Shown one piece after another: positions 5,481 to 30,908 of a stretch of 32,000 bases of DNA. Under the pieces are notes generated by a model. It worked only from the letters and a program-made list of their open reading frames with translations, did not search any database and was not told the origin of the DNA. The position numbers and the translations under genes are program-made. The stretch is from Thalassobaculum fulvum. GTDB lineage: Bacteria > Pseudomonadota > Alphaproteobacteria > Thalassobaculales > Thalassobaculaceae. The stretch is from positions 33,231 through 65,230 of the forward strand of contig NZ_BMZS01000012.1 in the NCBI RefSeq assembly GCF_014652915.1, in the 5' to 3' direction. Positions within the stretch are counted from its first letter, which is position 1. Every line of letters begins with the position of its first letter.

Positions 5481-6997
5481 GACGACCTCCCCCCGCCGGG
5501 CCGCGCCGGCTGCTCCGCCATCGCGGTCAGCAGCCGGGCGAGCGTGTCGACCCCGGCCTCGATCTCCGCCGGCTTGATGCCGCTGAAGCCCAGCACCAGG
5601 CCGTTCAGCGCCACCGGCTCCAGGCAGAACCGCCGGATCGGCGCCACCGTGATGCCGGCCGCGTCGGCGCGCCGGGCGACCTCGGCCTCCGGCAGGTCGG
5701 CGCGCAGGTGGCCGATGGTATGCAGACCGGTATCCGCCTCGACCACGTCCAGCAGCCCGGCCAACCGCTCGCGAGCCACGTCGATCAGCACCCGGTGGCG
5801 CTCCATGTAGGTGCGCCGCATGCGCCGCAGATGCGTCGCGAAATGACCCTCGTCCATGAACCCGGCGACGATCGCCTGGGCGTTCGAGGGGGCGCCCGGC
5901 AGGTAGGCGTTGAACACCTGCCTGAAGGTGTCGACCAGCGGCGCCGGGGCCAGCAGGTAGCCGAGGCGCAGCGCCGGGAACAGCGTCTTGCTGAAGGTCC
6001 CGACGTACAGCACGCGCTCGGCCCGGTCGACGCTCTTCAGGGCCGGCAGCGGGTGGCCGCCGTAGTGGAACTCGCCGTCGTAGTCGTCCTCGACGATCCA
6101 GGCATCGGCGGCCTCGGCGGCCGCCAGCAGCTGGAACCGCCGGGTCAGGCTCATGGTCACGCCGAGCGGCTGCTGGTGCGACGGCGTGACGAAGGCGAGA
6201 CGGAAGTCCGGCGCCGCCGCCTGGGCGTGCTCGACCACCATGCCGTCCCCGTCGACCGGCACCGGCACCAGCTCGGCGCCGGCCGCCACCAGGGCGTTGC
6301 GGGCGCCGATCGCGCCGGGGTTCTCGAACCACACCCTGTCGCCCTGGCGCAGCAGCACCGTGCCGATCAGGTGGAAGGCCTGCTGGGCGCCGTTGACGAT
6401 GAAGATCTGCTCGTCCTCGCAGGCGATCCCGTGGGTCGCCCTGAGGTGGGCGGCGATCGCCCGGCGCAGCGGAGCGTAGCCGGTCGGGTCGCCATAGCCG
6501 AGCACGACGTCGCGCTTGCCGCGCCAGTGCTTTGCGGTCTGGCGTGCCCACTGGGCGACCGGGAACATGTCGAGGGCGGGCAGGGCGGTGGTAAAGGCCC
6601 GCACGGTGTGCGGCAGCCGCTCGGCGAAGGCCGGCAGCGGCGGCCGGCGATCCCGATCGGGCCCCGACTCGACCGGCGCCCTGGCGGGAACTTCCGGCCC
6701 GCTCGACGGCACCGGCCGGTTGGAGTCCAGCGCCGGGCTGACGAAGGTGCCGGCGCCGGTCCGCGACTCGACCAGCCCTTCGGCCACCAGCCTCTCGAAC
6801 ACCTCGACCATGGTGGTGCGCGACACGCCGAGCTCGTTCGCCAGCGTGCGGGTCGCCGGCAGCCGGTCGCCGGCGCGCAGGCCGCCGGCCAGGATGATGT
6901 CGCGCACGCCGTTGGCGATCTGGCTGGCCAGCGGGCGCGGCGAGGCCGGGTCGATCTTCACCGACTGCAGCAGTGCGCCGCCGGCCCGCTTGACCAT
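5477..6997 (-). CDS. MocR-subfamily GntR transcriptional regulator (wHTH fused to an aminotransferase-like PLP domain)
   Basis: N-terminal GntR wHTH ([41 protein letters not shown]) plus a ~350-aa fold-type-I aminotransferase-like domain ([18 protein letters not shown]; [18 protein letters not shown] with the expected Lys). Start placed at ATG 6997 (AGGGGG upstream). The ORF track's TTG 7030 is an alternative. Confidence 0.85.
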
Positions 6998-7028
6998 GCA
7001 TGCCCCCTGCCGGCGGTCCGCCGGCCAC

Positions 7029-7085
7029 AAAATGGACTTCTACATTGTCGAAAATGGACCTTAAGTTCAAAGCCAATTTACGGCC
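7029..7085 (+). promoter_or_regulatory. Conserved operator/promoter element, copy 1 (putative MocR-type regulator binding site)
   Basis: aaaatggacttctacattgtcgaaaatggaccttaagttcaaagccaattta aligns with 9877-9932. The 18-nt core ttgtcgaAaatggacctt (7045-7062) matches 17/18. An internal direct repeat AAAATGGAC(T/C)T starts at 7029 and 7051 (22-nt period). It lies in the divergent region between the regulator gene and the enolase-family gene. Confidence 0.5.
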
Positions 7086-16508: not shown

Positions 16509-17840
16509 ATGAGCTACGTGTTCAACCGCGATACCCGTGCCGACATGCCGATCGTCGTCCGCGGCGACGGGATCTGGATCGAGGATTCCACGGGCAAGCG
16601 CTACATCGACGCGTCCGGCGGGGCGGCGGTGTCCTGCCTCGGCCACAGCCACCAGCGGGTGATCGACGCGGTGCGCGAGCAGGTCGGCAAGATCGCCTTC
16701 GCCCACACCGGGGCGTTCTCCAGCGAGCCGGCCGAGGCCCTCGCCGAGGCGGTGGTGACCAGCGCGCCGGGCCGGATGGCCAAGGCGCTGTTCGTGAGCG
16801 GCGGCTCGGAGGCGAGCGAGGCGGCGATCAAGCTGGCCCGGCAGTACCACGTCGAGCGCGGCGAGCCGGGCCGGCACCGGATCATCGCCCGCCGCCAGAG
16901 CTATCACGGCAACACCCTCGGCGCGCTGTCGGCCAGCGGCAACATGGCGCGCCGGGCGCTGTACCAGCCCTACATGCAGGACTGGAGCCACATCGCGCCC
17001 TGCTATCCGTATCGCGGCCGCAGCCACGACGAGACCGAGGAGGAGTACGGCCTGCGGGTCGCCGACGAACTCGAGACCGAGATCGAGCGGGTCGGCGCCG
17101 AGACCGTGTCGGCCTTCATCCTGGAGCCGGTGGTCGGCGCCACCCTCGGGGCGGTCGCGGCGGTGCCGGGCTATCTCGCCCGGGTGCGCGAGATCTGCGA
17201 CCGCCACGGCGTGCTGCTGATCTTCGACGAGGTGATGTGCGGCATGGGCCGGACCGGCACCCTGTTCGCCTCGGAGCACGACGGCGTCGTGGCCGACATC
17301 TACACCGCCGCCAAGGGCCTGGGCGCCGGCTACCAGGCGATCGGCGCGGTGATCGCGTCGGAGAAGGTGTACGGCGCGATCCACGACGGTAGCGGCTTCT
17401 TCCAGCACGGCCACACCTACATGGGCCACCCGGTCGCCTGCGCGGCGGCGCTGGCGGTGCAGACCGCGATCCGCGAGGAGGGGCTGCTGGGGCGCGTGCA
17501 GGCCGGTGGGGCCAAGCTGCGCACCATGCTGGAGGAGCGCTTCGGCAACGACGCCCATGTCGGCGAGATCCGCGGGCGCGGCTACTTCCTGGCCATGGAG
17601 CTGGTGGCCGACCGGGCGACCAAGCAGCCGTTCGACCCGTCCCTGGCGATCCACAACCGGGTCAAGAAGGCGGCGATGGACCTCGGCCTGATCTGCTACC
17701 CGATGGGCGGGGTGATCGACGGCAAGTCCGGCGACCACGTGCTTGTCGCCCCGCCGTTCATCACCAGCGACGACGAGCTGGCGGAGATCGTCTCGCGGGT
17801 CGGGCAGGCGGTCGACCGGGCGATCGCGTCGACCCGCTGA
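16509..17840 (+). CDS. Class III (omega-) PLP aminotransferase
   Basis: 443 aa from ATG 16509; ATG 16479 is possible. Motifs SGGSEASEAAIKLARQY, FDEVMCGMGRTG, and the PLP-Lys context YTAAKGLGAGY. Confidence 0.9.
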   Translation: MSYVFNRDTRADMPIVVRGDGIWIEDSTGKRYIDASGGAAVSCLGHSHQRVIDAVREQVGKIAFAHTGAFSSEPAEALAEAVVTSAPGRMAKALFVSGGSEASEAAIKLARQYHVERGEPGRHRIIARRQSYHGNTLGALSASGNMARRALYQPYMQDWSHIAPCYPYRGRSHDETEEEYGLRVADELETEIERVGAETVSAFILEPVVGATLGAVAAVPGYLARVREICDRHGVLLIFDEVMCGMGRTGTLFASEHDGVVADIYTAAKGLGAGYQAIGAVIASEKVYGAIHDGSGFFQHGHTYMGHPVACAAALAVQTAIREEGLLGRVQAGGAKLRTMLEERFGNDAHVGEIRGRGYFLAMELVADRATKQPFDPSLAIHNRVKKAAMDLGLICYPMGGVIDGKSGDHVLVAPPFITSDDELAEIVSRVGQAVDRAIASTR

Positions 17841-17967
17841 CCTCGGGCCGCTGAGTTCGCGCTGCCATCGTACCGTCACGGTTCGTGCGGCATTGTGCGG
17901 CCGTTTCGTCGACGGTCACGGTGTGGTTTGATCCTGGTCGCGGGAGACGCTGGACGTGGGAGATGCC

Positions 17968-19089
17968 ATGGCCAATAGCGAACCGGTCGTCCTGGACGTC
18001 GATGGCCTGTCGGCGCTGTTCGAGGCGCTGAAGCGGCGCGGCTACCGGGTGGTCGGCCCGACCGTCCGTGACAAGGCGATCGTCTACGACGACCTCGACA
18101 GCCCAGCCGATCTCCCCGAGGGCTGGACTGACGAGCAGGACGGCGGGCACTACCGCCTGCTGCGCCGCGACGACCGGGCGCTGTTCGGCTACGTGGTCGG
18201 GCCGCAATCCTGGAGGCAGTTCCTGCACGCCCCGCGGGTCGAGCTGTGGCACGGCACCAAGAGCGGCGACGGCGTGCGGATCGAGGCCGATCCGATGCCG
18301 TCCGAGCCGCTGGCGTTCGTCGGCGTGCGGGCCTGCGAGCTGCAGGCGATCGCGGTGCAGGACCGGGTGCTGATGGGCGGTGCCTATGTCGACCCGCACT
18401 ACCGGGCACGGCGCGAGGGCGCGTTCCTGGTCGCGGTCAACTGCGGCCGGGCCGGCGGCACCTGCTTCTGCGTGTCGATGGAGACCGGGCCGAAGGCGAC
18501 GGCCGGCTTCGACCTGTCGCTGACCGAGCTGCTGGACGGCGACGGCCACCGCTTCCTGGTCGAGACCGGCACGGACACGGGTCAGGCGGTCCTGGCGGAG
18601 CTGCCGCACCGGCCGGCGGCGGCCGCCGAGATTGCCGCCGCCGCGGCCGTCGTCGAGCGCGCGGCGGCGTCGATGGGCCGCGAGATGCGGTCGGACGACG
18701 TCCGCGACCTGCTGATGCGCAACCTGGAGCACAGGCGCTGGGACGACGTCGCGGATCGCTGCCTTAGCTGCGGCAACTGCACCATGGTTTGCCCGACCTG
18801 CTTCTGCACGACGGTCGAGGAGACCAGCGGCCTGACCGGCGCGGAGAGCGCGCGGTCGCGGCGCTGGGATTCCTGCTTCACCATGGATTTCTCCTACATC
18901 CACGGCGGCAGCGTGCGGTCGAGCACCAGATCGCGCTATCGCCAGTGGATGACCCACAAGCTGGCGACCTGGCACGACCAGTTCGACATGTCGGGCTGCG
19001 TCGGCTGCGGGCGCTGCATCACCTGGTGTCCCGTCGGGATCGACATCACCGAAGAGGTGCGTGCGATCCGGGGCGATGGACCCAACTGA
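17968..19089 (+). CDS. hyhB: Group 3b-type [NiFe]-hydrogenase beta subunit (AsrA-like 4Fe-4S protein)
   Basis: 373 aa from ATG 17968 with GGGAG upstream. Two ferredoxin-type motifs, [16 protein letters not shown] and [14 protein letters not shown]. Size and position match the beta subunit of sulfhydrogenase-type enzymes. Confidence 0.85.
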
Positions 19090-19101
19090 GGGAGGACGGT
19101 C

Positions 19102-19569
19102 ATGGAAGCCCACGGTCTCGATCGCATCCTGCGCGAGCACCGGTTCTTCGCCGGGTTGGACGAAGAGTCCTGCGGCGTGGTCTGCGGCTGCGCCAAGAAC
19201 GTCCGCTTCGAGGCCGGTGAGTACCTGTTCCGGGCCGGCGAGCCGGCGGACCAGTTCTACCTGCTGCGGCACGGCCGGGTGGCGCTGGAGGTGGCGGCCC
19301 CCGGGCGCGGCGCGGTGACGTTCCAGACCGTCGGCGAGGGCGAGATCGTCGGCGTCTCCTGGCTGATCCCGCCTTACCGCTGGACCTACGACGCCAAGGC
19401 GGTCGAGCTGGTCCGGGCGATCGCCATGGACGCCGCGTGCCTGCGCCGGAAGTGCGAGGCCGACCACGATCTCGGCTACGAGATGATGAAGCGGTTCGTC
19501 CCGGTGCTGGTCGATCGCCTGCAGAACACCCGGCTGCAGATCCTCGACGTCTACGGTCCCAACGGCTGA
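19102..19569 (+). CDS. Stand-alone cyclic-nucleotide-binding (CAP/FNR effector-type) domain protein with no output domain
   Basis: 155 aa. Beta-roll pattern FFAGLDEE...[31 protein letters not shown]...GEGEIVG...[11 protein letters not shown]. It lies 12 nt after hyhB and 7 nt before hyhG. Confidence 0.8.
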
Positions 19570-19576
19570 CGCCGCC

Positions 19577-20407
19577 GTGACGATCTTCGACCCGATGCTG
19601 CCGCGTATCGCCCGCACCCGCCGTCGCCGGCGCGACGGGCCGGCGGTGTGGACGCTCGACATCGAGATGGCGGAGGGCGGGCCGCCGGCGTTCGCACCGG
19701 GCCAGTTCAACATGCTGACGGCCTTCGGCGTCGGCGAGGTGCCGATCAGCGTCAGCGGCGATCCGGCCGACCCGAGCCGCCTGGTGCACACCATCCGCGC
19801 GGTCGGTCCGGCCTCGACCGCGCTGGCCCGGCTCGGACCCGGCGAGGTGCTGGGCCTGCGCGGGCCGTTCGGGGTCGGCTGGCCGATGGAGCAGGCGGTC
19901 GGCCGCGACGTGGTGGTGATCGCCGGCGGCCTCGGCCTGGCACCGCTGCGCCCGGCGCTCTATCGGCTGCTGGCCGAGCGCGAGCGCTACGGCAGCATCG
20001 TGCTGCTGTACGGCACCCGCAGCCCGGAGGAGATCCTGTTCCGTCGCGAGCTCGAGTCCTGGCGGCGCCGGCTGGACATCGACATCGAGGTGACGGTCGA
20101 CCACGCGGTCGGCGACTGGCGCGGCCATGTCGGCGTGGTGACCACGCTGATCCCGCGCTCGGCCTTCGAGCCGTCTAGCACTGTCGCCCTGGTGTGCGGG
20201 CCGGAGATCATGATGCGGTTCGCGATCGCGTCGCTGCAGGATGCCGGGGTCGCCGACGACGCCATCTATCTGTCGATGGAGCGCAACATGAAGTGCGCGG
20301 TCGGGCTGTGCGGGCACTGCCAGATGGGGCCTGTGCTGGTGTGCCGCGACGGGCCGGTCTTCCGGTACGACCGCATCCGGAGCATCCTCGGGGCGAGGGA
20401 GATCTGA
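19577..20407 (+). CDS. hyhG: Group 3b-type [NiFe]-hydrogenase gamma subunit (FAD/NAD(P)-binding, AsrB/PyrK-like, 2Fe-2S)
   Basis: 276 aa with a GTG start. Ferredoxin-reductase-type fold ([17 protein letters not shown]) and a C-terminal cluster motif [20 protein letters not shown]. Confidence 0.85.
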
Positions 20408-20408
20408 C

Positions 20409-21191
20409 GTGGCGGAAACGGCCCGAAAGCCCCGGCTCGGTGTGTGGAAATTCGCATCCTGCGACGGCTGCCAGCTCAGCCTGCTCGACTGCGAGGACGA
20501 GCTGCTGGCGGTCGCCGGCGCCGTCGACATCGCCTACTTCCCGGAGGCGACCCGCGGCGACGTGAAGGGCCGCTACGACCTGGCGCTGGTCGAGGGCTCG
20601 ATCACCACGCCGCACGACGCCGAGCGCATCCGCGACGTGCGCCGCTGGGCCCGCACCCTGGTGACGATCGGCGCCTGCGCCACCGCCGGCGGCATCCAGG
20701 CGCTGCGCAACTTCGCCGACGTCGCCGAGTACGCGGCGGTGGTGTACGCCCGGCCCGACTACATCGACACATTGGCCACCTCGACGCCGATCGCGGAGCA
20801 TGTCCCGGTCGACTTCGAGCTGCGCGGCTGCCCGATTTCCAAGCACCAGCTGGTCGAGGTGATCGCGGCGTTCCTGGCCGGGCGGCGGCCGGTCACCCCG
20901 GCCCACAGCGTGTGCGTCGAGTGCAAGCTGCGCGGCAACGTCTGCGTGACGGTGGCGCACGGCACCCCGTGCCTGGGGCCGGTGACCCATGCCGGCTGCA
21001 ACGCGCTGTGCCCGTCCTACGACCGTGGCTGCTACGGCTGCTACGGCCCGAAGGAGACCCCGAACCCGGCTGCTCTCGGCGACAAGTTGCAGGAACAGGG
21101 CATGGATGCCGACGCGCTGCGGCGGGTCTACCGGACCTTCAACGCCGCCGCACCGGCGTTCCGCGAGGAGAGCGAGCGCCATGGCCCGTAA
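20409..21191 (+). CDS. hyhS: [NiFe]-hydrogenase small (delta) subunit, NuoB/20-kDa-like
   Basis: 260 aa with a GTG start. N-terminal [26 protein letters not shown], and a C-terminal Cys-rich region [12 protein letters not shown]...[24 protein letters not shown]. Confidence 0.9.
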
Positions 21192-22488
21192 GACCATCAA
21201 GGTCGACTACATGGCGCGCGTCGAGGGCGAGGGCGCGCTGAAGGTGGTGGTGCGCGACGGCAAGGTGCAGTCGGCGGCGCTCAGCATCTTCGAACCACCG
21301 CGGTTCTTCGAGGCGCTGCTGCGCGGCCGCGCCTTCAGCGAGGCGCCGGACATCACCGCGCGGATCTGCGGGATCTGCCCGGTCGCCTACCAGATGAGCG
21401 CGGTGCACGCGATGGAGAACGCGCTCGGCGTGGCCGTCGACGGCCCGCTGCGCGACCTCCGCCGGCTGCTGTACTGCGGCGAGTGGATCGAGAGCCACGG
21501 GCTGCACGTCTACATGCTGCACGCGCCGGATTTCCTCGGCTACGACAGCGCGATCCACATGGCCAAGGACCATGGCGACGTGGTGCGCCGCGGCCTCGAC
21601 CTGAAGAAGGTAGGCAACGAGATCCTCACCGCGGTCGGCGGCCGGGAGATCCACCCGATCAACGTCAAGGTCGGCGGGTTCTACAAGGTGCCGCGCAGGC
21701 GCGACCTGCAGCACCTGGCCGAACGATTGAAAGGCGCGCGCGACGCGGCGCTGGAGACCGTGCGCTGGGTGGCCGGCTTCGACATTCCCGACCGCGAGCG
21801 CGACTACACCTTCGTGGCGCTCCGTCATCCGGACGAGTACCCGTTCAACGAGGGACGCATCGTCTCGAACCGCGGCCTGGACATCGCTGCCGCCGAGTAC
21901 GACGCGCATTTCCAGGAGATCCACGTCCGGCACTCGACGGCGCTGCAGTCGCGGATGCGAGCCGACGGCTCGGCCTATCTGGTCGGCCCGCTGGCCCGCT
22001 ACAGCCTGAACTTCGACCGGCTGTCGCCGCTGGCCCGGCAGGCGGCGCGCGAAGCCGGGCTCGGCTCCACCTGCCGCAACCCGTACCAGAGCATCGTGGT
22101 GCGCGCGGTCGAGACCCTGTACGCCTGCGACGAGGCGCTGCGGATCATCGAGAGCTATCGGGAGCCGGATGCGCCGGCAGTCCCGGTCGAGCCGCGTGCC
22201 GCGACCGGCTATGCCGCGACCGGTCATGGGGCGACCGAGGCGCCGCGCGGGTTGCTGTACCACCGCTACCGGCTGGAGGCCGACGGCAGCATCGCCGACG
22301 CCCTGATCGTGCCGCCGACCTCGCAGAACCAGGCGAGCATCGAGGAGGATCTGGCGAGCTACGTGGAGAGCTTCCTGGACCTTCCCGACGAGGCCCTGCA
22401 GCACCGCTGCGAACAGACCGTGCGCAACTACGACCCGTGTATCTCCTGCGCGACCCATTTCCTGCGCCTCGACATGGACCGGGAGTGA
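21181..22488 (+). CDS. hyhL: [NiFe]-hydrogenase large (alpha) subunit, group 3-like
   Basis: 435 aa from ATG 21181, overlapping hyhS by 11 nt. N-terminal Ni-binding motif [10 protein letters not shown] and C-terminal DPCISCATH, followed by the 9-aa cleavable tail FLRLDMDRE. Confidence 0.95.
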
Positions 22489-22492
22489 CGGC

Positions 22493-22966
22493 GTGAGCGG
22501 GCGGCGCATCGTGATAGGCATCGGCAACCCGGACCGGGGCGACGACGGAGTCGGCCGGCTGGTCGCGCGCAGCCTCGATGGCCGGCTGCCGGCCGATGTG
22601 GAGGTCGTCGAGGCGGACGGCGAGGCGACGGCGCTGCTGGCGCACATGGACGGGGCCGAAGCGGCCTATCTGGTCGACGCCTGTGCCTCGGGCGCGGAAC
22701 CGGGCACGGTCCGTCGGTTCGACGCCGCGGCCGCTCCGCTGCCGCAGGCCGCCTTCGGGCTGTCGACCCACGGCTTCGGCCTGGCCGAGGCGATCGAGCT
22801 GGCCCGGGCGCTGCGGCAACTGCCGGCGCGCTGCGTGGTGTATGCGATCGAGGGGGCCGGGTTCGAGACCGGGGCGCCGCTGTCGGATGCGGTTGCCGAG
22901 GCGATCCCGCAGGTCCAGGAACGCCTGTGCTGCGAGATCGAACAGCCGGCCGACGTTGGGAGCTGA
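22493..22966 (+). CDS. Hydrogenase maturation endopeptidase (HycI/HoxW family)
   Basis: 157 aa with a GTG start. Motif IVIGIGNPDRGDDGVGRLVA and a later STHGFGL. Lies immediately after the large subunit. Confidence 0.9.
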   Translation: MSGRRIVIGIGNPDRGDDGVGRLVARSLDGRLPADVEVVEADGEATALLAHMDGAEAAYLVDACASGAEPGTVRRFDAAAAPLPQAAFGLSTHGFGLAEAIELARALRQLPARCVVYAIEGAGFETGAPLSDAVAEAIPQVQERLCCEIEQPADVGS

Positions 22967-22968
22967 CC

Positions 22969-23232
22969 ATGCACGAAGCCTCGCTGATGACCGGCCTGAT
23001 GCGACGGATCGAGGAGGTCGCCGCCGCCGACCGTGCCGTGAAGGTGGTCGGCGTGTCGGTCCGGCTCGGTGCCCTCAGCCACATGTCGGCGGAGCATTTC
23101 ACCGAGCATTTCGAGCAGGCCGCCGCCGGGTCGATCGCCGAGGGCGCGCGGCTGCAGATCGAGCTGTCCGAGGACCAGACGGCGCCCTGGGCGCAGGACA
23201 TCGTGCTCGAGAGCGTCGAGATCGAGACCTGA
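22969..23232 (+). CDS. hypA: HypA-like nickel metallochaperone lacking the Zn-finger domain
   Basis: 87 aa from ATG 22969. N-terminal MHE nickel-binding motif, and collinear with HypA (…VVGVSVRLGALSHMSAEHFTEHFEQAAAGSIAEGARLQIE…). It has no cysteine at all. Confidence 0.7.
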   Translation: MHEASLMTGLMRRIEEVAAADRAVKVVGVSVRLGALSHMSAEHFTEHFEQAAAGSIAEGARLQIELSEDQTAPWAQDIVLESVEIET

Positions 23233-23237
23233 CGGCG

Positions 23238-25553
23238 ATGCCGGCGGCCGGACCCCTGGGGCAGGCACGACCCGGCGAGCGCCGGCGGCTGCGCATGGTG
23301 GTGCGCGGCGCCGTGCAGGGCGTGGGGTTCAGGCCGTTCGTGCATCGCACCGCCAATGCGCTCGGACTCGCCGGCTGGGTGCGCAATACCGCGGCCGGCG
23401 TGGCGATCGAGGCCGAAGGCCCGGCCGACAGGCTTTCGGTCCTGGTCGACACGGTGCTGCACCGGTCGCCGGCACCGGCATCGATCGACGGGGTGGATCT
23501 CGACGAAACAGAGCCTGTGGGCGGCTCGGGCTTCGCGATCCGGGACAGCGAGACCGGGGGTGCGCACGTTGCCCGGGTACTGCCCGACCTTGCGACCTGC
23601 AACGACTGCCTGCGCGAGCTGTTCGACCCGGCCGACCGCCGCCACCGCTACCCGTTCGTCAACTGCACCCGGTGCGGACCGCGTTACAGCATCGTCGAGG
23701 CCGTGCCCTACGATCGGTCGCGCACCAGCATGCACCGGTTCGCGATGTGCCCGGCCTGCCAACGGGAGTACGATGATCCGGCCGACCGCCGATTCCACGC
23801 CGAGCCGAACGCCTGTCCCGGGTGCGGGCCGCGTCTCGACCTGTGGAGCCCCGACGGCACGTCGCTGGCGCGCGACGACGACGCGCTGCAGGCCGCCGCG
23901 GCCGCGATCCGCGCCGGGAAGATCGTCGCGGTCAAGGGGATCGGCGGGTTCCACCTCCTGGTCGACGCCCGCGACGAGGCGGCGGTCCGGCGCTTGCGGG
24001 CCGCGAAGGCCCGTCCGTCCAAGCCGTTCGCGATGATGTTCCCGACCCTGGCGACGGTCCGCGAGGCCTGCCGGCCGGAGGTCGAGGAGGAGCGGCTGCT
24101 CGGCGATCCGGCGCGACCGATCGTGCTGATCCGACGGGCCGCGCAGTCGGGGCTCGCCCGGTCGGTGGCGCCCGACAACCCTCGTCTCGGCGCCCTGCTG
24201 CCGTACGCGCCGCTGCATCACCTGCTGATGCACGATCTCGGCTTCCCGGTGGTCGCGACCAGCGGCAATCGCGGCGACGAGCCGATCGCGACCGACGAGC
24301 ACGATGCGCTGCGGCGGCTGGCCGGGATCGCCGAACTGTTCCTGGTGCACGACCGGCCGATCGTCCGTCCGGTCGACGACTCCGTGGTGCAGGTCATGTG
24401 CGGTCGGCCGCAGGTCCTGCGCCGGGCCCGCGGCCTGGCGCCGAACCCGGTGGTTCACGGCGGCCTGCCGGACGGCATCCTGGCCTTCGGGGCGCATCTG
24501 AAGGCGACCGTCGCGCTGACCGTCGGCGGCAACCTGGTGGCCAGCCAGCATCTCGGCGACCTGGAGACCGGGCCGGCCCGGGACGCCTACCGTCAGGCGC
24601 TCGACGACGTCGCCCGGCTGCACGAGGCCCGGCCGCGGCTGGCGGTCCGCGACGCGCACCCGGACTACGCGTCGTCGCGGGCGGCGGAGGAGGCGGGCGT
24701 GCCGGTCGTGGCGGTGCAGCACCACGTCGCGCATGTCGCCGCCTGCATGGCCGAGCACGGCCTGGCGCCGCCGGTGCTCGGCGTGGCCTGGGACGGCACC
24801 GGGTACGGCCCGGACGGCACGGTGTGGGGCGGGGAGTTCATCCGGATCACCGAGGCCGGCTGGCAGCGGGTCGCGCACCTGCGGCCGTTCCGGTTGCCGG
24901 GCGGCGAGGCGGCGGCGCGCGAGCCGCGGCGCTCGGCGCTCGGCCTGCTGGCCGAGGTCTATGGACGGGGGGCGTTCGGGATGACCCGCCTCGCCGCGGT
25001 CGCAGCGTTTGCGCCGGCCGAGCGCGAGGTCCTGCGAAACGCCCTGGCTCGCGGGCTGAACGCGCCGTGGACCACCAGCGCCGGCCGGCTGTTCGACGGT
25101 TTCGCGGCGCTGTGCGGCCTCGTCCAGCGCGCCAGCTACGAAGGCGAGGCGGCGTCGGCGCTGGAATGGGCGGCCGAGGGCTCGCGGACCGGGCGCAGCT
25201 ACGACATGCCGGTGGTCGAGCGCGGTACGGCGCCGTTGGTGGTGGACTGGGGACCGGCCGTCGTCGCGGCGCTCGCGGACCGGGCGGACGGAATGCCGCC
25301 GGCGGCGGTCTCGGAGGCCCTGCATAACGGTCTGGCGCGGGCGATCGTCGCCGTCGCGGTCCGGCTGGAAGCACAGCGGATCGTGCTGACCGGCGGCTGC
25401 TTCCAGAACCGCTGCCTGACCGAAGCGACGGTCGCCGGGCTGCGCACCGCCAACCGCCAGGTGTTCTGGCATGGCCGGGTGCCGCCGAACGACGGCGGGA
25501 TCGCTGTCGGGCAGGCCGCCTGGGCCGCGTGGCGCCCGAGGAAGGAGGCCTGA
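23238..25553 (+). CDS. hypF: Carbamoyltransferase HypF
   Basis: 771 aa from ATG 23238. Acylphosphatase domain ([14 protein letters not shown]), two Zn-finger pairs (CNDCLREL...CTRCGPRY; CPACQREY...CPGCGPRL), YrdC-like [15 protein letters not shown], and a Kae1-like C-terminus ([11 protein letters not shown]). Confidence 0.95.
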
Positions 25554-25555
25554 CC

Positions 25556-25810
25556 ATGTGCCTGGCGGTTCCCGGCCGGGTTCTCGACGTCGCCGGCGAC
25601 GAGCCGATCCTGCGGGTCGGCCGGGTCGACTTCGGCGGCATCGTCAAGCAGATCAACCTCGCCTTCGTGCCGGAGGCGCAGGTCGGCGACTACGTGCTGG
25701 TGCATGTCGGCTTCGCCATCACGGTGATCGACGAGGCCGAGGCCGAGCGGGTGTTCCGGCACCTGGAGGAGATCGGCGAGCTGGTCGTCGAGGAGGACGG
25801 TGCGGCATGA
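25556..25810 (+). CDS. hypC: Hydrogenase assembly chaperone HypC/HupF
   Basis: 84 aa starting MCLAVPGRV, with the essential N-terminal Cys2. Start derived from the frame of ORF 25529..25810. Confidence 0.9.
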
Positions 25811-26916
25811 GGTTCCGCGACGAGTACCGCGACGCGGCGGCGGCCCGGCGGCTCGCCGACGCCATCGCCCGGACCGCGACCCGGCCCTGGACGCTGATGG
25901 AGGTGTGCGGCGGTCAGACCCATGCCATCGTCCGGTTCGGCATCGACGAGCTGCTGCCCGACGGCCTGTCGCTGGTGCACGGCCCCGGCTGCCCGGTTTG
26001 CGTCACCCCGGTCGAGTACGTCGACAAGGCGATCGAGATCGCCGGCCGGCCGGGCGTCGTGCTGTGCTCGTTCGGCGACATGCTGCGGGTGCCGGGCAGC
26101 GCCGGCGACCTGCTGGCCGCCAAGTCCCGTGGTGCCGACGTCCGGGTAGTGTACTCGCCGGCCGACGCGGTCGCGATCGCGCGGGCCGAGCCGGAGCGCG
26201 AGGTGGTGTTCTTCGCCGTCGGCTTCGAGACCACGGCCCCGGCGAACGCGATGGCGGCGGTGCTGGCCCGGCGGGAGGGCCTGGGGAACTTCTCGATGCT
26301 GGTGTCGCACGTCCTGGTGCCGCCGGGGATGCGGGCGATCCTGGAGGCGCCGGGCAACCGGATCGACGGCTTCCTGGCCGCCGGCCACGTGTGCACTGTG
26401 ATGGGGTTCGAGGAGTACGAGCCGATCGCCGCGTCCTACCGGGTTCCGGTCGTGGTCACCGGCTTCGAGCCGGTCGACATCCTGGAAGGCGTCTACTGGT
26501 GCGTGCGCCAGCTCGAGGCGGGACGCGCCGAGGTCGAGAACCAGTACGCCCGGGCGGTCCGGCGCGAGGGCAACCGGGCGGCAATGGCGACCATGCGCGA
26601 GGTGTTCCGCGTCGTGCCGCGGCGCTGGCGCGGCATCGGCGACATCGCCGACAGCGGTCTCGGTCTCGCCGAGGCCTATGCCGGGTTCGACGCCGAGCGC
26701 CGGTTCGGCCCGGTCCTGCTGGAGGCGGAGGCCGCCGGCGAGTGCATCAGCGGTGCGGTGCTGCGCGGCGAGCGCCGGCCGACCGACTGCCCGGCGTTCG
26801 GCACGCGCTGCACGCCCGAGCATCCGCTGGGCGTCACCATGGTGTCGTCGGAGGGCGCGTGCGCCGCCTATTACCGTTACCGCGGGGCGGCCGCGGTCGC
26901 CGGGGGGCGGCGATGA
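25807..26916 (+). CDS. hypD: Hydrogenase maturation factor HypD
   Basis: 369 aa from ATG 25807 with an ATGA overlap with hypC. Motifs [25 protein letters not shown]. Confidence 0.95.
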
Positions 26917-27962
26917 GCGGTCCGGAGTTCCCGATGTCGTGCCCGTTGCCGACAGGAGACGGCGAGACCGTGCAGATGGCGCATGGCGGCGGCGGCCGGG
27001 CGATGGCGCGGCTGCTCGACACCGTCATCCGGCCGGCCTTCGACGATGCCGAGCTCGACCGGCGTCACGACGGCGCGGTGGTCGAGGTCGGCGGGCCGGC
27101 GGCGTTCACCACCGACAGCTACGTCGTCCGCCCGCTGTTCTTCCCCGGCGGCGACATCGGCACCCTGGCGGTCTACGGCACGGTCAACGACCTGGCGATG
27201 TGCGGCGCCCGGCCGCTGTACCTAAGCGTCGGGCTGATCCTGGAGGAAGGGCTGCCGCTCGACACCCTGCGGCGGGCCGTCGCCTCGATGCGCGACGCCG
27301 CGCGCGCGGCCGGGGTGCGGCTGGTCACCGGCGACACCAAGGTGGTCGACCGCGGCAAGGCCGACGGCCTGTTCGTCAACACCGCCGGCATCGGCCGGGT
27401 GGTGGCGCCGGCGCCGGTCGGGCCGGCGGCGGTGCGGTCGGGCGACGCGGTGATCCTCAGCGGCGACATCGGCCGGCACGGCATGGCGGTGATGGCGGCG
27501 CGCGAGAACCTTGGGTTCGAGACCGTGATCGAGAGCGACTGCGCGCCGGTGGCGGCACCGGTCCTGACCCTGCTGGAGGCAGGGGTCGCGGTCCACTGCC
27601 TGCGTGACCTGACCCGCGGCGGCCTGGCCAGCGCCGCCGTCGAGATCGCCGAGACCGCCGGCCTGGCGCTGGCGTTCGACGAGGCCGCCGTGCCGGTCCG
27701 CGACGACGTGGCGGCGGCGTGCGAGCTGCTGGGCCTCGACCCGCTCCATGTCGCCAACGAGGGGCGGTTCCTGGCCATCGTCGACCCCGCGGACGTCGAC
27801 AGGGCGGTCGCCATACTGCGGGACCATCCGGTGTCGGCGGGGGCGGTGGCGATCGGCGAGGTGCGCGACGGCCCGGCCGGGCGGGTGACCTGCCGTGGTC
27901 CGCTCGGCGTCGACCGGGTGGTCGACATGCTGAGCGGCGAACAGCTGCCTCGCATCTGCTGA
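26913..27962 (+). CDS. hypE: Hydrogenase maturation factor HypE (carbamoyl dehydratase)
   Basis: 349 aa from ATG 26913 with an ATGA overlap with hypD. PurM-like fold and the diagnostic C-terminal PRIC. Confidence 0.95.
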
Positions 27963-28007
27963 GCCACGTGCCAAGATGCGGGCAGCCTGCAGCGGGAGGA
28001 CGGCGGC

Positions 28008-29372
28008 ATGACGGTCAGTCTCGGCTTCTACGGCGGGGTCGGCACGGTCACCGGCTCCAAGTTCCTGGTCGATGCGCCGGGTCGCCGGATCCTGGTCGAC
28101 TGCGGGCTGTTTCATGGCTTCAAGCCGTTGCGCGGCCGCAATTGGGAGCCGTTGCCGTTCGAGCCGGTATCGCTCGACGCAGTGGTGCTGACCCATGCGC
28201 ATCTGAGTCATTCCGGGCATCTGCCGATCCTGGTGCGCGACGGGTTTCGCGGTCCGGTCTACGCGACGTCGGCGACCCGGGACCTGTGCGAGATCCTGCT
28301 GCGCGACACCGGCTACCTGCAGGAGCGCGACGCCGAGTATGCCAACCGGCAGGGCTTCTCGCGGCACCACCCGGCACTGCCGCTGTTCTCCGAGGCCGAC
28401 GCGATGGCGGCGCTCGAGCGCTTCGTGCCGGTGCCGTTCGGCGAACCCTGGGCACTGGACGGCGGGGCGACGCTGCACTTCCGGCCGTCCGGCCATCTCC
28501 TGGGATCGGCCTCGGTCGCGCTCGACGTCGCCGGCGCCAGCCTCCTGTTTTCCGGCGATCTCGGCCGCTGGAACAGCGCGACCATGCTCGACCCGGCGAC
28601 GGTGGAGCGCGCCGACGTCCTGGTGGTCGAGTCCACATACGGCGACCGCATCCACGAGCCGGGAGACCCGGAGGACCGGCTGGTCGAGATCATCAACCGG
28701 GTTGTCGGCCGCGGCGGCACCATCCTGATCCCCGATTTCTCCGCCGGCCGCGCCCAGACCATGCTGTTCCACCTGTACCGGATGAAGGCGGAGGGCCGGA
28801 TCCCGGACGTCCCGGTCGTCGTCGACAGCCCGCGGGCGATCAACGCCGGGGAGATCTTCGGGCGGCACCTGGCCGACCACCGCCTGACCGCCGCCGAGTG
28901 CCGGGCCGCCTGCAATCTCGCGACCTATGTCCGTGACGACGAGGCGTCCCGGGCGCTCGACTCCGACCCGACGCCGAAGCTGGTGATGTCGGCCAGCCCG
29001 ATGGCGATGGACGGCCGGGTCCTGCACCACCTGACGCACCTGGCCCCGGACCCGCGCAACGCCATCCTGTTCACCGGCTACCAGGCCGGCGGCACGCGCG
29101 GCGCCAAGCTGATCGCCGGCGCCGACGCGGTGAAGATCCACGGGCGGATGGTGCCGGTGCGCGCCGAGGTCGCCAACCTGCATTGGCTGTCGTCGCACGC
29201 CGACGCCGACGAGATCATGCGGTGGCTCGACGGGTTCCGGGAGCCGCCGCGCCGGACCTTCGTGGTGCATGGCGAGGGCGACGCCCCGGCCGCGCTTCGG
29301 GCGCGGATCGCGGAGGATCTCGGCTGGTCGTGCGAGATCCCCGAAGACGGCAGCGTCGTGGAGCTGGGCTGA
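28008..29372 (+). CDS. Metallo-beta-lactamase-fold, beta-CASP-family protein (RNase J/CPSF-like hydrolase)
   Basis: 454 aa with GGGAGGA upstream. MBL motifs ILVDCG, THAHLSHSG, SGHLLGSA, LFSGDLG. Beta-CASP-type VVESTYG and the C-terminal LSSHAD. Confidence 0.85.
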   Translation: MTVSLGFYGGVGTVTGSKFLVDAPGRRILVDCGLFHGFKPLRGRNWEPLPFEPVSLDAVVLTHAHLSHSGHLPILVRDGFRGPVYATSATRDLCEILLRDTGYLQERDAEYANRQGFSRHHPALPLFSEADAMAALERFVPVPFGEPWALDGGATLHFRPSGHLLGSASVALDVAGASLLFSGDLGRWNSATMLDPATVERADVLVVESTYGDRIHEPGDPEDRLVEIINRVVGRGGTILIPDFSAGRAQTMLFHLYRMKAEGRIPDVPVVVDSPRAINAGEIFGRHLADHRLTAAECRAACNLATYVRDDEASRALDSDPTPKLVMSASPMAMDGRVLHHLTHLAPDPRNAILFTGYQAGGTRGAKLIAGADAVKIHGRMVPVRAEVANLHWLSSHADADEIMRWLDGFREPPRRTFVVHGEGDAPAALRARIAEDLGWSCEIPEDGSVVELG

Positions 29373-29375
29373 GCC

Positions 29376-30908
29376 ATGACCGGACCGTCGGAACTTCCGG
29401 GGGCAGGGTCGCACCGCGGGCTGCGGGTCCGGCGCCTCGGCATCGACACCCACCAGGAAGCGGTCGTCTACATGCGGCAGGACTGCCCGGTCTGCCGGGC
29501 CGAGGGCTTCCTGACCCACCCGCGGGTCCGGGTGCGCAGCCGGACGGCGTCGGCCATTGCGACGATCAACCAGGTCGTCAGCGGGCTGCTGCGGCCGCTC
29601 GAGGTCGGGCTGTCGGAGTCGGCCTGGCAGCGGCTCGGGGTCGCCGAGGGCGACGAGGTGTTCTTCAGCCATCCCGCACCGCTCGACTCGCTCAGCCTGC
29701 TGCGCGCCAAGATCTACGGCAGCCGGTTCGGGGACCGGGCGCTGGCGACCATCATCGGCGACATCGGTGCCGGCCGGTATTCCGACATCCATCTGGCGTC
29801 GTTCATAACGGCGTGTGCGGCGCGCGGGCTGGACGACCGCGAGATGCTGGAACTGACCCGTGCGATGGTCGCCTCCGGCGACCGGCTCGACTGGGGCGCC
29901 GGGCCGGTGGTCGACAAGCACTGCGTCGGCGGCCTGCCCGGCAACCGGACCACGCCGATCGTGGTGTCGATCGTCGCCGCCTGCGGCCTCACCATGCCGA
30001 AGACCTCGTCGCGCGCCATCACCTCGCCGGCCGGGACCGCCGACACCATGGAGACCATGGCTCCGGTCGACCTGGACCTGCCCGACATGCGGCGCGTGGT
30101 CGAGCAGGAGGGCGGTTGCGTGGTGTGGGGCGGTGCGGTCCGTCTCAGCCCGATCGACGACACCCTGATCCGGGTGGAGCGGGCGCTCGACATCGACAGC
30201 GAGGGACAGCTGGTCGCCTCGGTGCTGTCCAAGAAGGCGGCGGCCGGCTCGACCCATCTGGTCCTGGACCTGCCGGTCGGTCCGACGGCGAAGGTGCGGA
30301 GCGACGTCGACGCGGCGCGGCTGGAGGCCGCACTGACGCTCGTCGGGACCAGCCTCGGCATGCGGGTACGGTGCATCCGGACCGACGGCCGCCAGCCGGT
30401 CGGGCGCGGCATCGGCCCGGCGCTGGAGGCGCGCGACGTGCTGGCGGTCCTGCAGGACCGGGCCGACGCGCCTGCCGACCTGCGCGACCGGGCGCTGGCG
30501 CTGGCCGGGGCGCTGCTGGAACTCGGCGGGGCCGCCGCTGCTGGGGCCGGCGCCGCTGCCGCCGGTGCGGTGCTGGCGGACGGCAGGGCCTGGCGCAAGT
30601 TCCAGGCGATCTGCGAGGCCCAGGGCGGGATGCGGATGCCGCCGGTCGCCGCCTACCGTCATCCGGTGACGGCGGCGAAGGGCGGCCGCGTGACCGGCAT
30701 CGACAACCGGGCGATCGCCAAGGCGGCGAAGCTCGCCGGGGCGCCGTCGGCGAAAGCTGCCGGTCTCGACCTGCACGTCCGGCTGAACCAGACGGTGGCG
30801 GCCGGCGAGCCATTGTTCACCCTGCATGCGGAGTCCCAGGGCGAGCTCGACTACGCCCTGGACTACGTGTCGACCCATCCGCTCGCGGTGCGGGTCGAGG
30901 AGGCCTGA
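29376..30908 (+). CDS. Thymidine-phosphorylase-family protein, long form (AMP-phosphorylase-like)
   Basis: 510 aa starting 3 nt after the MBL gene. Core motif DKHCVGGLPGNRTTPIVVSIVAACGLTMPKTSSRAITSPAGTADTME. Carries an N-terminal extension of ~85-100 aa relative to DeoA-type enzymes. Confidence 0.85.
   Translation: MTGPSELPGAGSHRGLRVRRLGIDTHQEAVVYMRQDCPVCRAEGFLTHPRVRVRSRTASAIATINQVVSGLLRPLEVGLSESAWQRLGVAEGDEVFFSHPAPLDSLSLLRAKIYGSRFGDRALATIIGDIGAGRYSDIHLASFITACAARGLDDREMLELTRAMVASGDRLDWGAGPVVDKHCVGGLPGNRTTPIVVSIVAACGLTMPKTSSRAITSPAGTADTMETMAPVDLDLPDMRRVVEQEGGCVVWGGAVRLSPIDDTLIRVERALDIDSEGQLVASVLSKKAAAGSTHLVLDLPVGPTAKVRSDVDAARLEAALTLVGTSLGMRVRCIRTDGRQPVGRGIGPALEARDVLAVLQDRADAPADLRDRALALAGALLELGGAAAAGAGAAAAGAVLADGRAWRKFQAICEAQGGMRMPPVAAYRHPVTAAKGGRVTGIDNRAIAKAAKLAGAPSAKAAGLDLHVRLNQTVAAGEPLFTLHAESQGELDYALDYVSTHPLAVRVEEA

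Follow-up and report, generated by a model that had tools for sequence, protein, structure and literature searches.

A cyclic-nucleotide-binding-fold protein encoded between the beta and gamma subunit genes as a proposed fifth subunit of bacterial group 3b [NiFe]-hydrogenases

Analysis of a 32,000-nucleotide stretch of the Thalassobaculum fulvum genome (the window) revealed an open reading frame on the plus strand (19102-19569, ATG start, 155 amino acids) that separates the beta gene from the gamma gene in an operon for a group 3b [NiFe]-hydrogenase and whose product is a stand-alone protein with the cyclic-nucleotide-binding (CNB) fold. Relatives of this CNB protein were found in at least 598 species-level genomes (profile scan with a tight 12-sequence alignment as the query), and the gene is a conserved, uncharacterized fifth gene of bacterial 3b operons. 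A literature search for a 3b-linked CNB gene returned two passing mentions only and no functional study. On balance we favor the view that bacterial group 3b hydrogenases contain the protein in stoichiometric amount as an accessory (fifth) subunit, which would act post-translationally by tuning or activating the transfer of electrons between NAD(P)H and H2. The operon and the signals around the CNB gene were annotated as follows.

17956-19089, plus strand: hyhB/hydB, Fe-S (beta) subunit (Pfam Fer4_22; NCBIfam sulfhyd_HydB, 7.9e-44; PDB 9NEZ_B, 7.9e-40)
19090-19096, plus strand: strong Shine-Dalgarno sequence GGGAGGA, read from the sequence, 5 nt 5' of the CNB ATG and directly 3' of the hydB stop
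19102-19569, plus strand: CNB-fold protein, stand-alone, 155 aa, proposed fifth subunit of bacterial group 3b hydrogenase (reading frame, Pfam, AF2 and synteny)
19577-20407, plus strand: hyhG/hydG, FAD/NAD(P)-binding [2Fe-2S] (gamma) subunit (Pfam NAD_binding_1 and DHODB_Fe-S_bind; NCBIfam hydrogenase subunit gamma, 1.5e-59)
20409-21191, plus strand: hyhS, small (delta) subunit (Pfam Oxidored_q6; NCBIfam sulfhyd_ShyD, 6e-51)
21181-22488, plus strand: hyhL, [NiFe] large (alpha) subunit, group 3b type (NCBIfam sulfhyd_ShyA, 2.2e-86)
22493-22966, plus strand: large-subunit maturation endopeptidase (Pfam HycI; TIGR00072, 3.7e-34)
22927-23232, plus strand: hypA (Pfam HypA)
about 23238-25553, plus strand: hypF (analogy with locus L001; acylphosphatase-like N-terminus)
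25556-25810, plus strand: hypC (reading frame)
about 25807-26916, plus strand: hypD (Pfam HypD)

The operon belongs to group 3b. Its best NCBIfam matches are the sulfhydrogenase alpha, beta, gamma and delta models, all below the equivalog cut-offs, so that the window subunits are homologues and not equivalogs of these proteins. The best PDB matches of HyhL are likewise group 3b enzymes (Thermococcus kodakarensis 5YXY, 8.7e-68; Pyrococcus furiosus 9NEZ_D, 2.5e-63), which rank above Mvh (group 3c), the NAD-reducing type (group 3d) and Frh. The CNB gene lies 12 nt after hydB and 7 nt before hydG, the gaps given in the initial annotation, and its GC3 is 0.94, versus 0.92-0.94 in the adjoining genes. 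In orthologous operons the gene ends mostly overlap or lie very close to each other, which suggests that translation of the CNB gene and its operon neighbors is coupled. A promoter scan of 17500-27500 found no promoter-like site, and a terminator scan found no terminator on the coding strand.

Only one Pfam domain, PF00027 (cNMP_binding), was detected in the CNB protein (E 5.4e-15, residues 34-120, 87 of 89 model positions; 55.6 bits against a curated cut-off of 27.5), and the scan returned no HTH and no other output domain. The AF2 model (pLDDT 87.9, pTM 0.82) has a complete CNB fold, and Foldseek matched it with probability 1.00 to many CNB domains, with 3MDP at the top (TM 0.90) and the CRP/GlxR sensor domains next. 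Both the sequence and the eight-stranded beta-roll with its flanking helices therefore place the protein in the CNB superfamily. The model ends with a long helix:

19465-19554, plus strand: long C-terminal helix, residues 122-151, counterpart of the CRP/FNR dimerization helix (AF2; alignment with the C-helices of MtbCRP and GlxR)

Residues R139, L140, Q146, D149 and Y151 of this helix are at least 95% conserved, and the CNB protein is probably a dimer. No winged-helix DNA-binding domain follows the C-helix. Pfam and AF2 thus agree with the initial description of an effector beta-roll alone, without HTH, kinase or other output domain, and the accompanying statement that the protein is not a transcription factor holds as well, because the DNA-binding domain is absent. 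The protein shares the effector-domain fold and the long dimerization helix with the CRP/FNR factors (Escherichia coli CRP, Mycobacterium tuberculosis CRP, Corynebacterium glutamicum GlxR and FNR), but at 155 residues it is without their winged HTH (Pfam and AF2), without the cAMP-contacting Glu/Arg and without an FNR-type Cys set. Members of the CNB family are 150-160 aa long.

Among the best 80 loci, HydB lies directly upstream and HydG directly downstream of the CNB gene in 78, and the small and large subunit genes come next wherever the contig reaches far enough. These 80 loci come from Proteobacteria, Acidobacteriota, Gemmatimonadota, Planctomycetota, Nitrospinota, Binatia, Bacteroidota, Chloroflexota and Actinomycetota, and the gene order is identical on Burkholderia and Rhodococcus plasmids. 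When the look-up started from HydB, the CNB gene was present in all five loci (5/5). A CNB-only reading frame between the B and G genes, which the initial annotation had proposed to look for in other 3b loci, is therefore recurrent. As to the co-evolution that it had also raised, the distance matrices show co-divergence: the correlation between the CNB protein and HyhL (r = 0.80) falls inside the range of true subunit pairs (0.74-0.82), although such a mirror-tree value may simply arise if the whole operon is inherited together. The CNB protein is as conserved as its neighbors, with a mean pairwise identity of 0.60 against 0.61 for HydB and 0.60 for HydG. In the other 2 of the 80 loci, close relatives (61-64% identity) are found outside hydrogenase operons, and more distant clades (35-45% identity) show no hydrogenase link. 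One of these, a single-domain clade (35-40% identity), came from metagenome contigs examined for the context of tandem two-domain relatives, which also yielded one truncated contig; its genes have unrelated neighbors, for example MarC, chaperonin and LexA genes. The two exceptional loci and the unlinked clades speak against a fifth subunit, as does the consideration that the pocket could be ligand-free.

The four-subunit 3b enzymes (P. furiosus sulfhydrogenase I/II, T. kodakarensis Hyh and M. smegmatis Hyd3) have homologous alpha, beta, gamma and delta subunits, but the CNB gene is absent from these enzymes and their operons. In the structure of P. furiosus sulfhydrogenase I (9NEZ), beta and alpha match the window subunits and no chain matches the CNB protein, in support of the statement in the initial annotation that archaeal operons have no gene at this position. 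In M. smegmatis Hyd3 (MSMEG_3931-3927), the beta gene MSMEG_3931 adjoins the gamma gene MSMEG_3930 with no CNB gene between them; consistent with this gene order, a homology search with the Rhodococcus orthologue obtained matches in Rhodococcus, Nocardia and Kribbellaceae and no mycobacterial match. Since P. furiosus sulfhydrogenase I and M. smegmatis Hyd3 work without the CNB protein, it is not needed for core catalysis.

In addition to the stand-alone gene, several joined forms were detected. Natural HydB::CNB fusions make up a separate lineage of 12 clusters, with the CNB domain at the C-terminus of HydB; they are 539-546 aa long and share 49-76% identity with the query fusion P0183. The AF2 model of a natural fusion has a pTM of 0.66 and a linker pLDDT below 50, and gives no confident docking geometry. 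The single fusion operon examined is a complete hydrogenase operon with a second, free CNB gene, and so encodes two CNB domains. One cluster is a CNB::HydG fusion, and five family members carry tandem domains with the signature kept in both repeats, which makes them, to judge from their sequences, covalent dimers. A 720-aa 'triple fusion' (P0282) was discarded as an assembly artefact, because its contig carries many frameshifts. We concluded that the protein is probably a physically associated accessory subunit of the hydrogenase because of the synteny (78/80 and 5/5), the subunit-level conservation, the co-divergence and the recurrent HydB fusion; these comparisons of sequences and gene order point in the direction that the initial annotation had taken.

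The strongest conservation in the protein lies in the segment that corresponds to the phosphate-binding cassette:

19333-19401, plus strand: degenerate phosphate-binding-cassette loop, residues 78-100, 23 residues (alignment and conservation)

The family signature of the loop is G-x-S-W-L-x-P-P-Y-R-W-x-[FY]-D-A-[RK]-A, and 11 of its 23 positions are at least 95% conserved, versus 4 of 47 in the beta-roll core. The loop sequence had been given correctly at the outset; the loop is, however, not longer than usual, as had been supposed, since HMMER and hhalign align it ungapped to GlxR and HoxI, and the difference lies in its residues.

The CNB protein could instead be an assembly factor or structural pseudo-receptor, which would fold the HydB/HydG module, load cofactors into it or bridge the two subunits with no sensing. 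The loss of the canonical ligand contacts, the placement of the gene between the two genes that it would serve, and core catalysis without a CNB protein in the archaeal and M. smegmatis enzymes are consistent with such a role. However, the stable HydB fusion in a diverged lineage argues for a permanent and not a transient association. Furthermore, the most conserved parts of the protein are the pocket loop and the hinge and lid helices, which make up the allosteric relay of CNB domains, a distribution that one would expect of a working sensor more than of a scaffold. We regard an assembly or structural role as rather unlikely.

The window protein has cysteines at positions 24, 28, 30, 113 and 118, exactly as the initial annotation had listed them:

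19171-19185, plus strand: Cys24 and Cys28 codons, lineage-specific and not a family feature (conservation counts)
19189-19191, plus strand: Cys30 codon, just before beta-1 (conservation counts)
19438-19455, plus strand: Cys113 to Cys118 (C-x4-C), in helix alpha-B, residues 111-120 (helix from the AF2 model)

Conservation was counted in 84 hydrogenase-linked sequences and in 108 diverse family representatives. C24 is present in 13/84 and C28 in 10/84 of the hydrogenase-linked sequences, and each in 1% of the diverse representatives. C30 is found in 81/84 (and in 78% of the broad family), C113 in 81/84 and C118 in 77/84; each of these three is thus 92-96% conserved, and all three occur together in 75/84. 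Only C30, C113 and C118 are therefore a family feature, and by these sequence counts they are conserved in the main (proteobacterial-type) clade only. All three are missing from the hydrogenase-embedded Rhodococcus orthologue, and C30 and C113 from both fusion-lineage copies. The redox idea of the initial annotation had been staked on conservation of the cysteines among orthologues, which holds for C30, C113 and C118 within the main clade and fails for C24 and C28.

These residues might form a thiol switch, in which C30 and C113, perhaps together with C118, would form a reversible disulfide at the alpha-A/alpha-B hinge that alters the subunit's conformation and thereby adapts the enzyme to O2 or redox state, in the main clade only. 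Such a switch is compatible with the fifth-subunit explanation. C30 and C113, both at least 95% conserved in the main clade, co-occur across the 108 representatives (both in 67, neither in 20, one only in 21; counts without phylogenetic weighting). The AF2 model places C113 and C118 within the hinge helix alpha-B and C30 where the N-terminal helices end, and in CNB domains the N-terminal helices and alpha-B pack against each other. However, the co-occurrence was counted without correction for phylogeny, and the aerobic Rhodococcus and Nocardia orthologues are without these cysteines, so we consider the switch doubtful.

To the usual ligands of the fold the pocket appears poorly suited. In the ungapped alignment with GlxR, the T. 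fulvum protein has V85 at the canonical Glu column and W94 at the canonical Arg column. Across the 84 hydrogenase-linked sequences the Glu column holds A, W, V or L and the Arg column is W94 in 83/84, while R93, one position ahead of the Arg column, is present in 71/84 and replaced by Q, K or H in 13/84. The family thus lacks the cassette Glu and Arg with which functional cAMP/cGMP receptors contact the ribose 2'-OH and the phosphate, respectively, and binding of cAMP or cGMP is unlikely because both are replaced; the early caution that such binding was not assured is borne out. A true cAMP/cGMP receptor using the usual pocket, which would couple the hydrogenase to a cAMP starvation or hypoxia signal, would explain why the Pfam cNMP_binding match passes its gathering score and why the nearest folds are cAMP-bound CRP, GlxR and PKA domains, and R93 might compensate for the missing Arg. 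However, with the Arg column 99% Trp, and R93 itself variable, we judge it improbable: known cases with such substitutions lose cNMP binding, as in trypanosome PKA regulatory subunits, whose altered cassettes are cAMP-independent and bind nucleosides (per PDB titles).

An FNR-like O2 sensor with an Fe-S cluster on its cysteines had been suggested by the five cysteines of the window protein, and the high conservation of C30, C113 and C118 is in its favor. However, an FNR-type [4Fe-4S] sensor has four Cys ligands, three of them N-terminal and one in the beta-roll (C20/C23/C29/C122 of E. coli FNR), and only three remain once the non-conserved C24 and C28 are set aside. Their positions also mismatch those of the ligands: the residue aligned with FNR C122 is I107, neither C113 nor C118, and the N-terminal ligands of FNR lie ~20 residues upstream of beta-1, while C30 is only 3 residues before it (a MAFFT --keeplength alignment of the FNR N-terminus was an artefact and was left out). 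Moreover, partial Cys combinations are common among the 108 representatives (CC- 23, --C 13, C-C 10), and the Rhodococcus orthologue and the fusion copies depart from the set as described above. The FNR analogy was rejected on both Cys conservation and position, and an Fe-S sensor is very improbable. Hardly credible, finally, is a trans-acting transcriptional co-regulator paired with a separately encoded DNA-binding protein, which would suit the automatic annotation of the CNB protein in many sources as 'Crp/Fnr family transcriptional regulator' (others, by analogy, have 'HoxI'), but the HTH is absent, no conserved partner regulator was seen near the CNB gene in the loci examined, no CRP/FNR-type box was seen 5' of the operon, and the position inside a structural operon and the fusion to the Fe-S subunit fit a DNA-directed role poorly.

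Two known proteins bear comparison with the CNB protein. HoxI of Cupriavidus necator/Ralstonia eutropha H16 (group 3d, HoxFUYHI2) is also a stand-alone CNB protein of ~17-19 kDa without an output domain, its gene is likewise part of an operon that encodes a cytoplasmic, NAD(P)-linked [NiFe]-hydrogenase, and the canonical cassette Arg is missing from it too; the initial annotation had not mentioned this precedent. In its enzyme HoxI occurs as a dimer, and both a regulatory role and an NADP(H) site are ascribed to it. For the CNB protein, a comparable dimeric association has indirect support from the gene fusions, the two-copy operon and the tandem-domain relatives. On HoxI, a passage in PMC12319191, citing Burgdorf 2005, has it as thought to supply the NADP(H)-binding site. 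However, HoxI is 18-20% identical to the CNB protein (20% by BLASTP), the family profile matches HoxI (hhalign, E 2e-9) barely better than E. coli CRP (3e-7), and tblastn on pHG1 at E<=1e-3 did not find HoxI. The hoxI gene stands at the operon end after hoxW and not between structural genes, and HoxI partners the Complex-I-like HoxFU diaphorase, whereas the partner of the CNB protein would be the AsrAB-like HydB/HydG module. HoxI retains the cassette Glu (GELGF), where the CNB family has W/A/V and another conserved signature, and its distribution is narrow (it is missing even from Hydrogenophaga SH), whereas the CNB gene is nearly universal in its clade. Orthology was rejected on the low identity, the near-CRP-level profile match, the tblastn miss and the operon position; as far as sequence comparison can tell, HoxI is an analogue with no relation by descent. 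The closest solved relative is 3MDP (Gmet_1532 of Geobacter metallireducens; structural genomics, function unknown), a stand-alone CNB protein of 142 aa (E 1.8e-14, 32% identity, rmsd 1.7 Angstrom at the TM of 0.90), which shares the loop pattern G-V-S-x-L-I-x-P-Y-x-x-T. It probably belongs to a wider, non-hydrogenase branch of the family, because W87, R93, W94, D97 and the Cys set are missing.

As a fifth subunit, the CNB protein would most likely be a built-in sensor or regulatory subunit, by analogy with HoxI. We infer that it would probably dimerize via the long C-helix and dock beside HydG and close to the ferredoxin domain at the HydB C-terminus, on the half of the enzyme that forms the electron-transfer/diaphorase part. 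The pocket appears to be under the strongest selection in the protein, though the Glu and Arg that hold cAMP/cGMP are lost, and most likely binds another small molecule (candidates are NAD(P)H, NADP+ or another nucleotide or nucleoside) or serves as a docking surface. In this way the subunit would tune or activate NAD(P)H <-> H2 electron flow on the same principle as the HoxI2 of the group 3d soluble enzyme, and in the main clade the C30, C113 and C118 thiol set at the alpha-A/alpha-B hinge may add redox sensitivity. We extend this tentatively, as a possibility somewhat short of probable, to the proposal that most bacterial 3b enzymes are five-component, the extra subunit being an independently recruited dimeric pseudo-cNMP receptor that binds a non-cNMP metabolite (e.g., NADPH/NADP+ or a nucleoside) and/or senses redox via the Cys pair, and directly switches NAD(P)H-dependent H2 production on or off.

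Few hydrogenases are as widespread in soil and aquatic bacteria as those of group 3b, whose presumed role in aerobes is to release excess reductant as H2 under hypoxia. To our knowledge, all 3b biochemistry and structure comes from enzymes without the CNB gene (Pyrococcus, Thermococcus and M. smegmatis), and hence the textbook composition is of four subunits. The names 'Crp/Fnr family transcriptional regulator' and 'HoxI' in databases are corrected for the CNB protein by this analysis. If it is a true fifth subunit, it should be included when bacterial 3b enzymes are expressed heterologously and purified, and gentle conditions are advised because HoxI is lost from its enzyme at high salt and high pH. 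The 3b family would then represent a second, independent recruitment of the CNB fold as a hydrogenase subunit, convergent with the HoxI principle, and a further CNB pocket re-tuned to a ligand other than cAMP/cGMP. Metabolites or redox state may then control the activity of 3b enzymes directly, beyond transcriptional control alone, and the CNB protein would be a point at which fermentative H2 evolution by aerobic bacteria of soil and water is under direct allosteric control.

The CNB gene of the alphaproteobacterium Thalassobaculum fulvum lies within a run of hydrogenase genes that share its strand, which in the window reads as follows.

17956-19089, + strand, hydB-like gene, Fe-S subunit
19090-19096, GGGAGGA, right behind the hydB stop codon and 5 nt 5' of the ATG of the CNB gene
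19102-19569, + strand, CNB gene, ORF of 155 codons with an ATG start
19577-20407, + strand, hydG-like gene, FAD/NAD(P)/[2Fe-2S] subunit
20409-21191, + strand, small subunit
21181-22488, + strand, [NiFe] large subunit
22493-22966, + strand, maturation protease
3' of the maturation protease, + strand, hypA, hypF, hypC and hypD in that order

The third-position GC of the CNB gene (0.94) is like that of the adjacent genes, and Pfam found a cNMP_binding domain (residues 34-120, E 5.4e-15) and no second domain in its product. The ORF, the gaps of 12 nt and 7 nt around it, the five cysteines (24, 28, 30, 113 and 118) and the loop sequence are as the initial annotation described them. The best model matches of the four structural proteins are sulfhydrogenase alpha, beta, gamma and delta, and the solved group 3b enzymes (T. 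kodakarensis 5YXY, P. furiosus 9NEZ) outscore Mvh, NAD-reducing and F420-reducing hydrogenases. The operon is therefore assigned to group 3b. Simple scans of window 17500-27500 detected neither a promoter-like site nor a terminator on the coding strand. The 115 nt 5' of hydB hold AC[C/G]GTCACGGT twice, 40 nt apart, and GTGCGGC twice (direct repeats at 17872-17882 and 17912-17922, also 17886-17901), which may represent a candidate operator; no CRP/FNR-type box was found in this region. Behind the hydrogenase genes (22927-28009), hypA, hypF, hypC and hypD are the only hyp genes, so hypB and hypE must be located elsewhere in the genome or beyond the window. The first gene past them (27173-28009, - strand) has no Pfam match. 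Unrelated neighbours (5477-7030, - strand, and 28008-30908, + strand) include a MocR/GntR-aminotransferase fusion regulator, a beta-CASP metallo-beta-lactamase-fold RNase and, directly 3' of the hyp genes, a thymidine-phosphorylase-like protein.

The CNB-protein family comprises 3144 matches among 90%-identity clusters and 240 clusters at 50% identity (E <= 1e-30), nearly all members being 150-160 aa long, and scanning a single genome of each species confirmed at least 598 relatives. Among the best 80 of these loci (54-80% identity), a HydB homologue immediately precedes the CNB gene and a HydG homologue immediately follows it in 78, with small subunit, large subunit and protease next where the contig extends far enough. 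The loci are spread over Alpha-, Beta- and Gammaproteobacteria, Acidobacteriota, Gemmatimonadota, Planctomycetota, Nitrospinota, Binatia, Zixibacteria, Bacteroidota, Chloroflexota and Actinomycetota. On the annotated plasmids of Burkholderia thailandensis and Rhodococcus qingshengii (36% identity), the gene order is identical and the gene ends overlap. Look-ups starting from HydB, meant to guard against circularity, found the CNB gene between the B and G genes in all five cases (KSB1, Bipolaricaulia, Fraserbacteria and two metagenome contigs). In 56 complete loci, mean pairwise identity is 0.60 for the CNB protein, 0.61 for HydB and 0.60 for HydG, and the distance matrices of the CNB protein and the large subunit correlate at r = 0.80, inside the span for pairs of accepted subunits (0.74-0.82). 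These values show co-inheritance and equal purifying selection and are not proof of contact.

In the two exceptions among the 80 (L055 and L068), the CNB gene lies among glycogen, storage and stress genes, and neither the Streptomyces paralogues nor a clade of 35-40% identity is linked to hydrogenases in the loci examined. The hydrogenase-embedded proteins therefore form one orthologous group within a wider stand-alone CNB family. Genes of the kinds found in hypoxia or dormancy regulons, and genes for storage-carbon use, often surround both CNB-carrying hydrogenase operons and free paralogues (contigs L001 4314-5784; L002 1077-1655 and 11391-14447; L100 1-2683; L003 5686-9296; L055 1245-8041). 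Their products include universal stress proteins, CBS-domain proteins, a NarL/DosR-type two-component pair (Response_reg+GerE, PAS-HisKA_3 kinase), wax-ester synthase, trehalose-phosphatase, glycogen phosphorylase, glucose-6-phosphate dehydrogenase, ferritin and phasin. Such surroundings agree with the reported hypoxia-induced role of Hyd3 in M. smegmatis. On metagenome contig L101 (1-2347), a HoxH-type (group 3d-like) hydrogenase directly precedes the 3b operon; a 167-aa ORF that lacks a Pfam match follows this hydrogenase, at the spot expected for hoxW or hoxI.

The confident AlphaFold2 model of the CNB protein, built with an 82-sequence alignment (pLDDT 87.9, pTM 0.82), consists of the following parts.

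Residues 3-12 and 21-28, N-terminal helices
Residues 31-110, beta-roll
Residues 111-120, hinge helix alpha-B
Residues 122-151, helix alpha-C, 30 residues

Structurally, the top match is 3MDP, a Geobacter protein of unknown function (TM 0.90, 1.7 Angstrom, 32% identity). The M. tuberculosis CRP and C. glutamicum GlxR sensor domains come next, and no hydrogenase-complex chain is among the matches. HydB::CNB fusions of 539-546 aa form 12 clusters (90% identity). With 49-76% identity to the query fusion P0183, they represent a real diverged lineage rather than an assembly error. The fusion operon examined contains the HydB::CNB gene, a second, free CNB gene, hydG, the small- and large-subunit genes, the protease gene and hypF, and so has two CNB domains. 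A CNB::HydG fusion was found in one cluster, and the family signature GWSWLxPP is present in both repeats of five tandem two-domain proteins. These arrangements and the CRP-like C-helix point to a dimer that would lie near the HydB C-terminus and the HydG N-terminus. Physical association with the hydrogenase is the best-supported step, and we regard it as probable. On 148-153 kb metagenome contigs (L085/L086 7001-9184), the free CNB gene of the fusion lineage lies directly behind the fused one. Identity to the window protein is 47% for one copy and 40% for the other, suggesting a heterodimer born of duplication. Some relatives of the CNB subfamily, the five two-domain proteins above among them, consist of two, three or even five tandem CNB domains and nothing else (P0121, 840 aa; P0167, 532 aa; P0122-P0145, 300-350 aa). 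A 720-aa 'triple fusion' was set aside on account of frameshifts in its contig.

In the solved structure of P. furiosus sulfhydrogenase I, the CNB protein has no matching chain, in line with the initial annotation's view that archaeal operons have nothing at this position. The M. smegmatis beta and gamma genes have adjacent locus tags (MSMEG_3931 and MSMEG_3930; PMC2799521), and the homology search with the Rhodococcus orthologue recovered actinobacterial orthologues from Rhodococcus, Nocardia and Kribbellaceae and none from mycobacteria. The protein has gone undescribed because the enzymes behind present knowledge are without it, and core catalysis therefore does not need it. A pure scaffold or assembly factor is one rival reading, and a transcriptional co-regulator is another. 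The transcription-factor name in public sources is wrong because the protein carries no DNA-binding domain, as the initial annotation maintained. In NCBIfam its top match, the CNB insert of family 2B encapsulin shell proteins, scores far below cut-off (E 6.6e-8). The literature yielded no functional, structural or comparative study of the 3b-linked gene, only two mentions beside public annotation: one paper, on a methanotroph, gives the equivalent gene the name 'HoxI' (PMC12319191), and another, on Rhodococcus equi, lists it and makes no comment (PMC13332983).

A canonical cAMP sensor is an unlikely alternative. The Glu of a canonical cassette touches the ribose and its Arg the phosphate, whereas the window protein has V85 in the Glu column (A, W, V or L across the family) and W94, found in 83/84 orthologues, in the Arg column; R93, one position ahead, is kept in only 71/84. 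Binding of cAMP or cGMP, already doubted for this atypical cassette, is thus unlikely. The loop had also been thought to be longer, which the ungapped alignment to GlxR and HoxI (the CNB-domain subunit of the Cupriavidus necator H16 group 3d soluble hydrogenase) refutes. It is the best-conserved segment (11/23 positions conserved at >=95%, vs 4/47 in the beta-roll core), with hinge helix alpha-B and portions of alpha-C next, and the conserved residues W87, P90, P91, Y92, W94, D97, A98, R115 and K117 are non-canonical. The classical ligand/hinge/lid relay is therefore under strong selection, with non-canonical chemistry. The pocket likely binds something else, or its surface acts as an interface.

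An FNR-like cluster is not supported, since the cysteines concerned are unconserved or misplaced: of 108 diverse family representatives, 1% have C24 and 1% have C28, FNR C122 aligns to I107, the FNR N-terminal ligands have no counterpart, and the Rhodococcus orthologue lacks C30, C113 and C118. The conservation on which that analogy depended holds among hydrogenase-linked sequences for C30 (81/84), C113 (81/84) and C118 (77/84; all three in 75/84) and fails for C24 (13/84) and C28 (10/84), which are a local peculiarity. Both fusion-lineage copies are without C30 and C113, and partial combinations of the three are common in the wider family. C30 and C113 occur together in 67 of the 108 family representatives, singly in 21 and not at all in 20. 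C30 lies where the N-terminal helices end and C113 in alpha-B, so that a thiol switch may operate in the main clade.

We favour, with somewhat better than even confidence, an accessory subunit that is dimeric and sits on the HydB/HydG module. Its re-tuned pocket would take a ligand other than cAMP or cGMP, and we infer that this is most likely a pyridine nucleotide or a metabolite related to one and that the loaded subunit would modulate enzyme activation or electron flow. In the main clade, thiol-based redox input may add to ligand input.

The CNB protein resembles HoxI in architecture and genomic logic. Membership of the HoxI family was ruled out by 20% identity, by a CNB-family profile to which HoxI (E 2e-9) is little better a match than E. 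coli CRP (E 3e-7), and by the position of pHG1 hoxI after hoxW, closing hoxFUYHW. The cassette of HoxI keeps Glu and has His for Arg, and PMC12319191, citing Burgdorf 2005, describes HoxI as a presumed NADP(H) binder. That a soluble hydrogenase can carry a CNB subunit is already known from HoxI, and the CNB gene is an independent, far more widespread version of this principle on a different diaphorase module.
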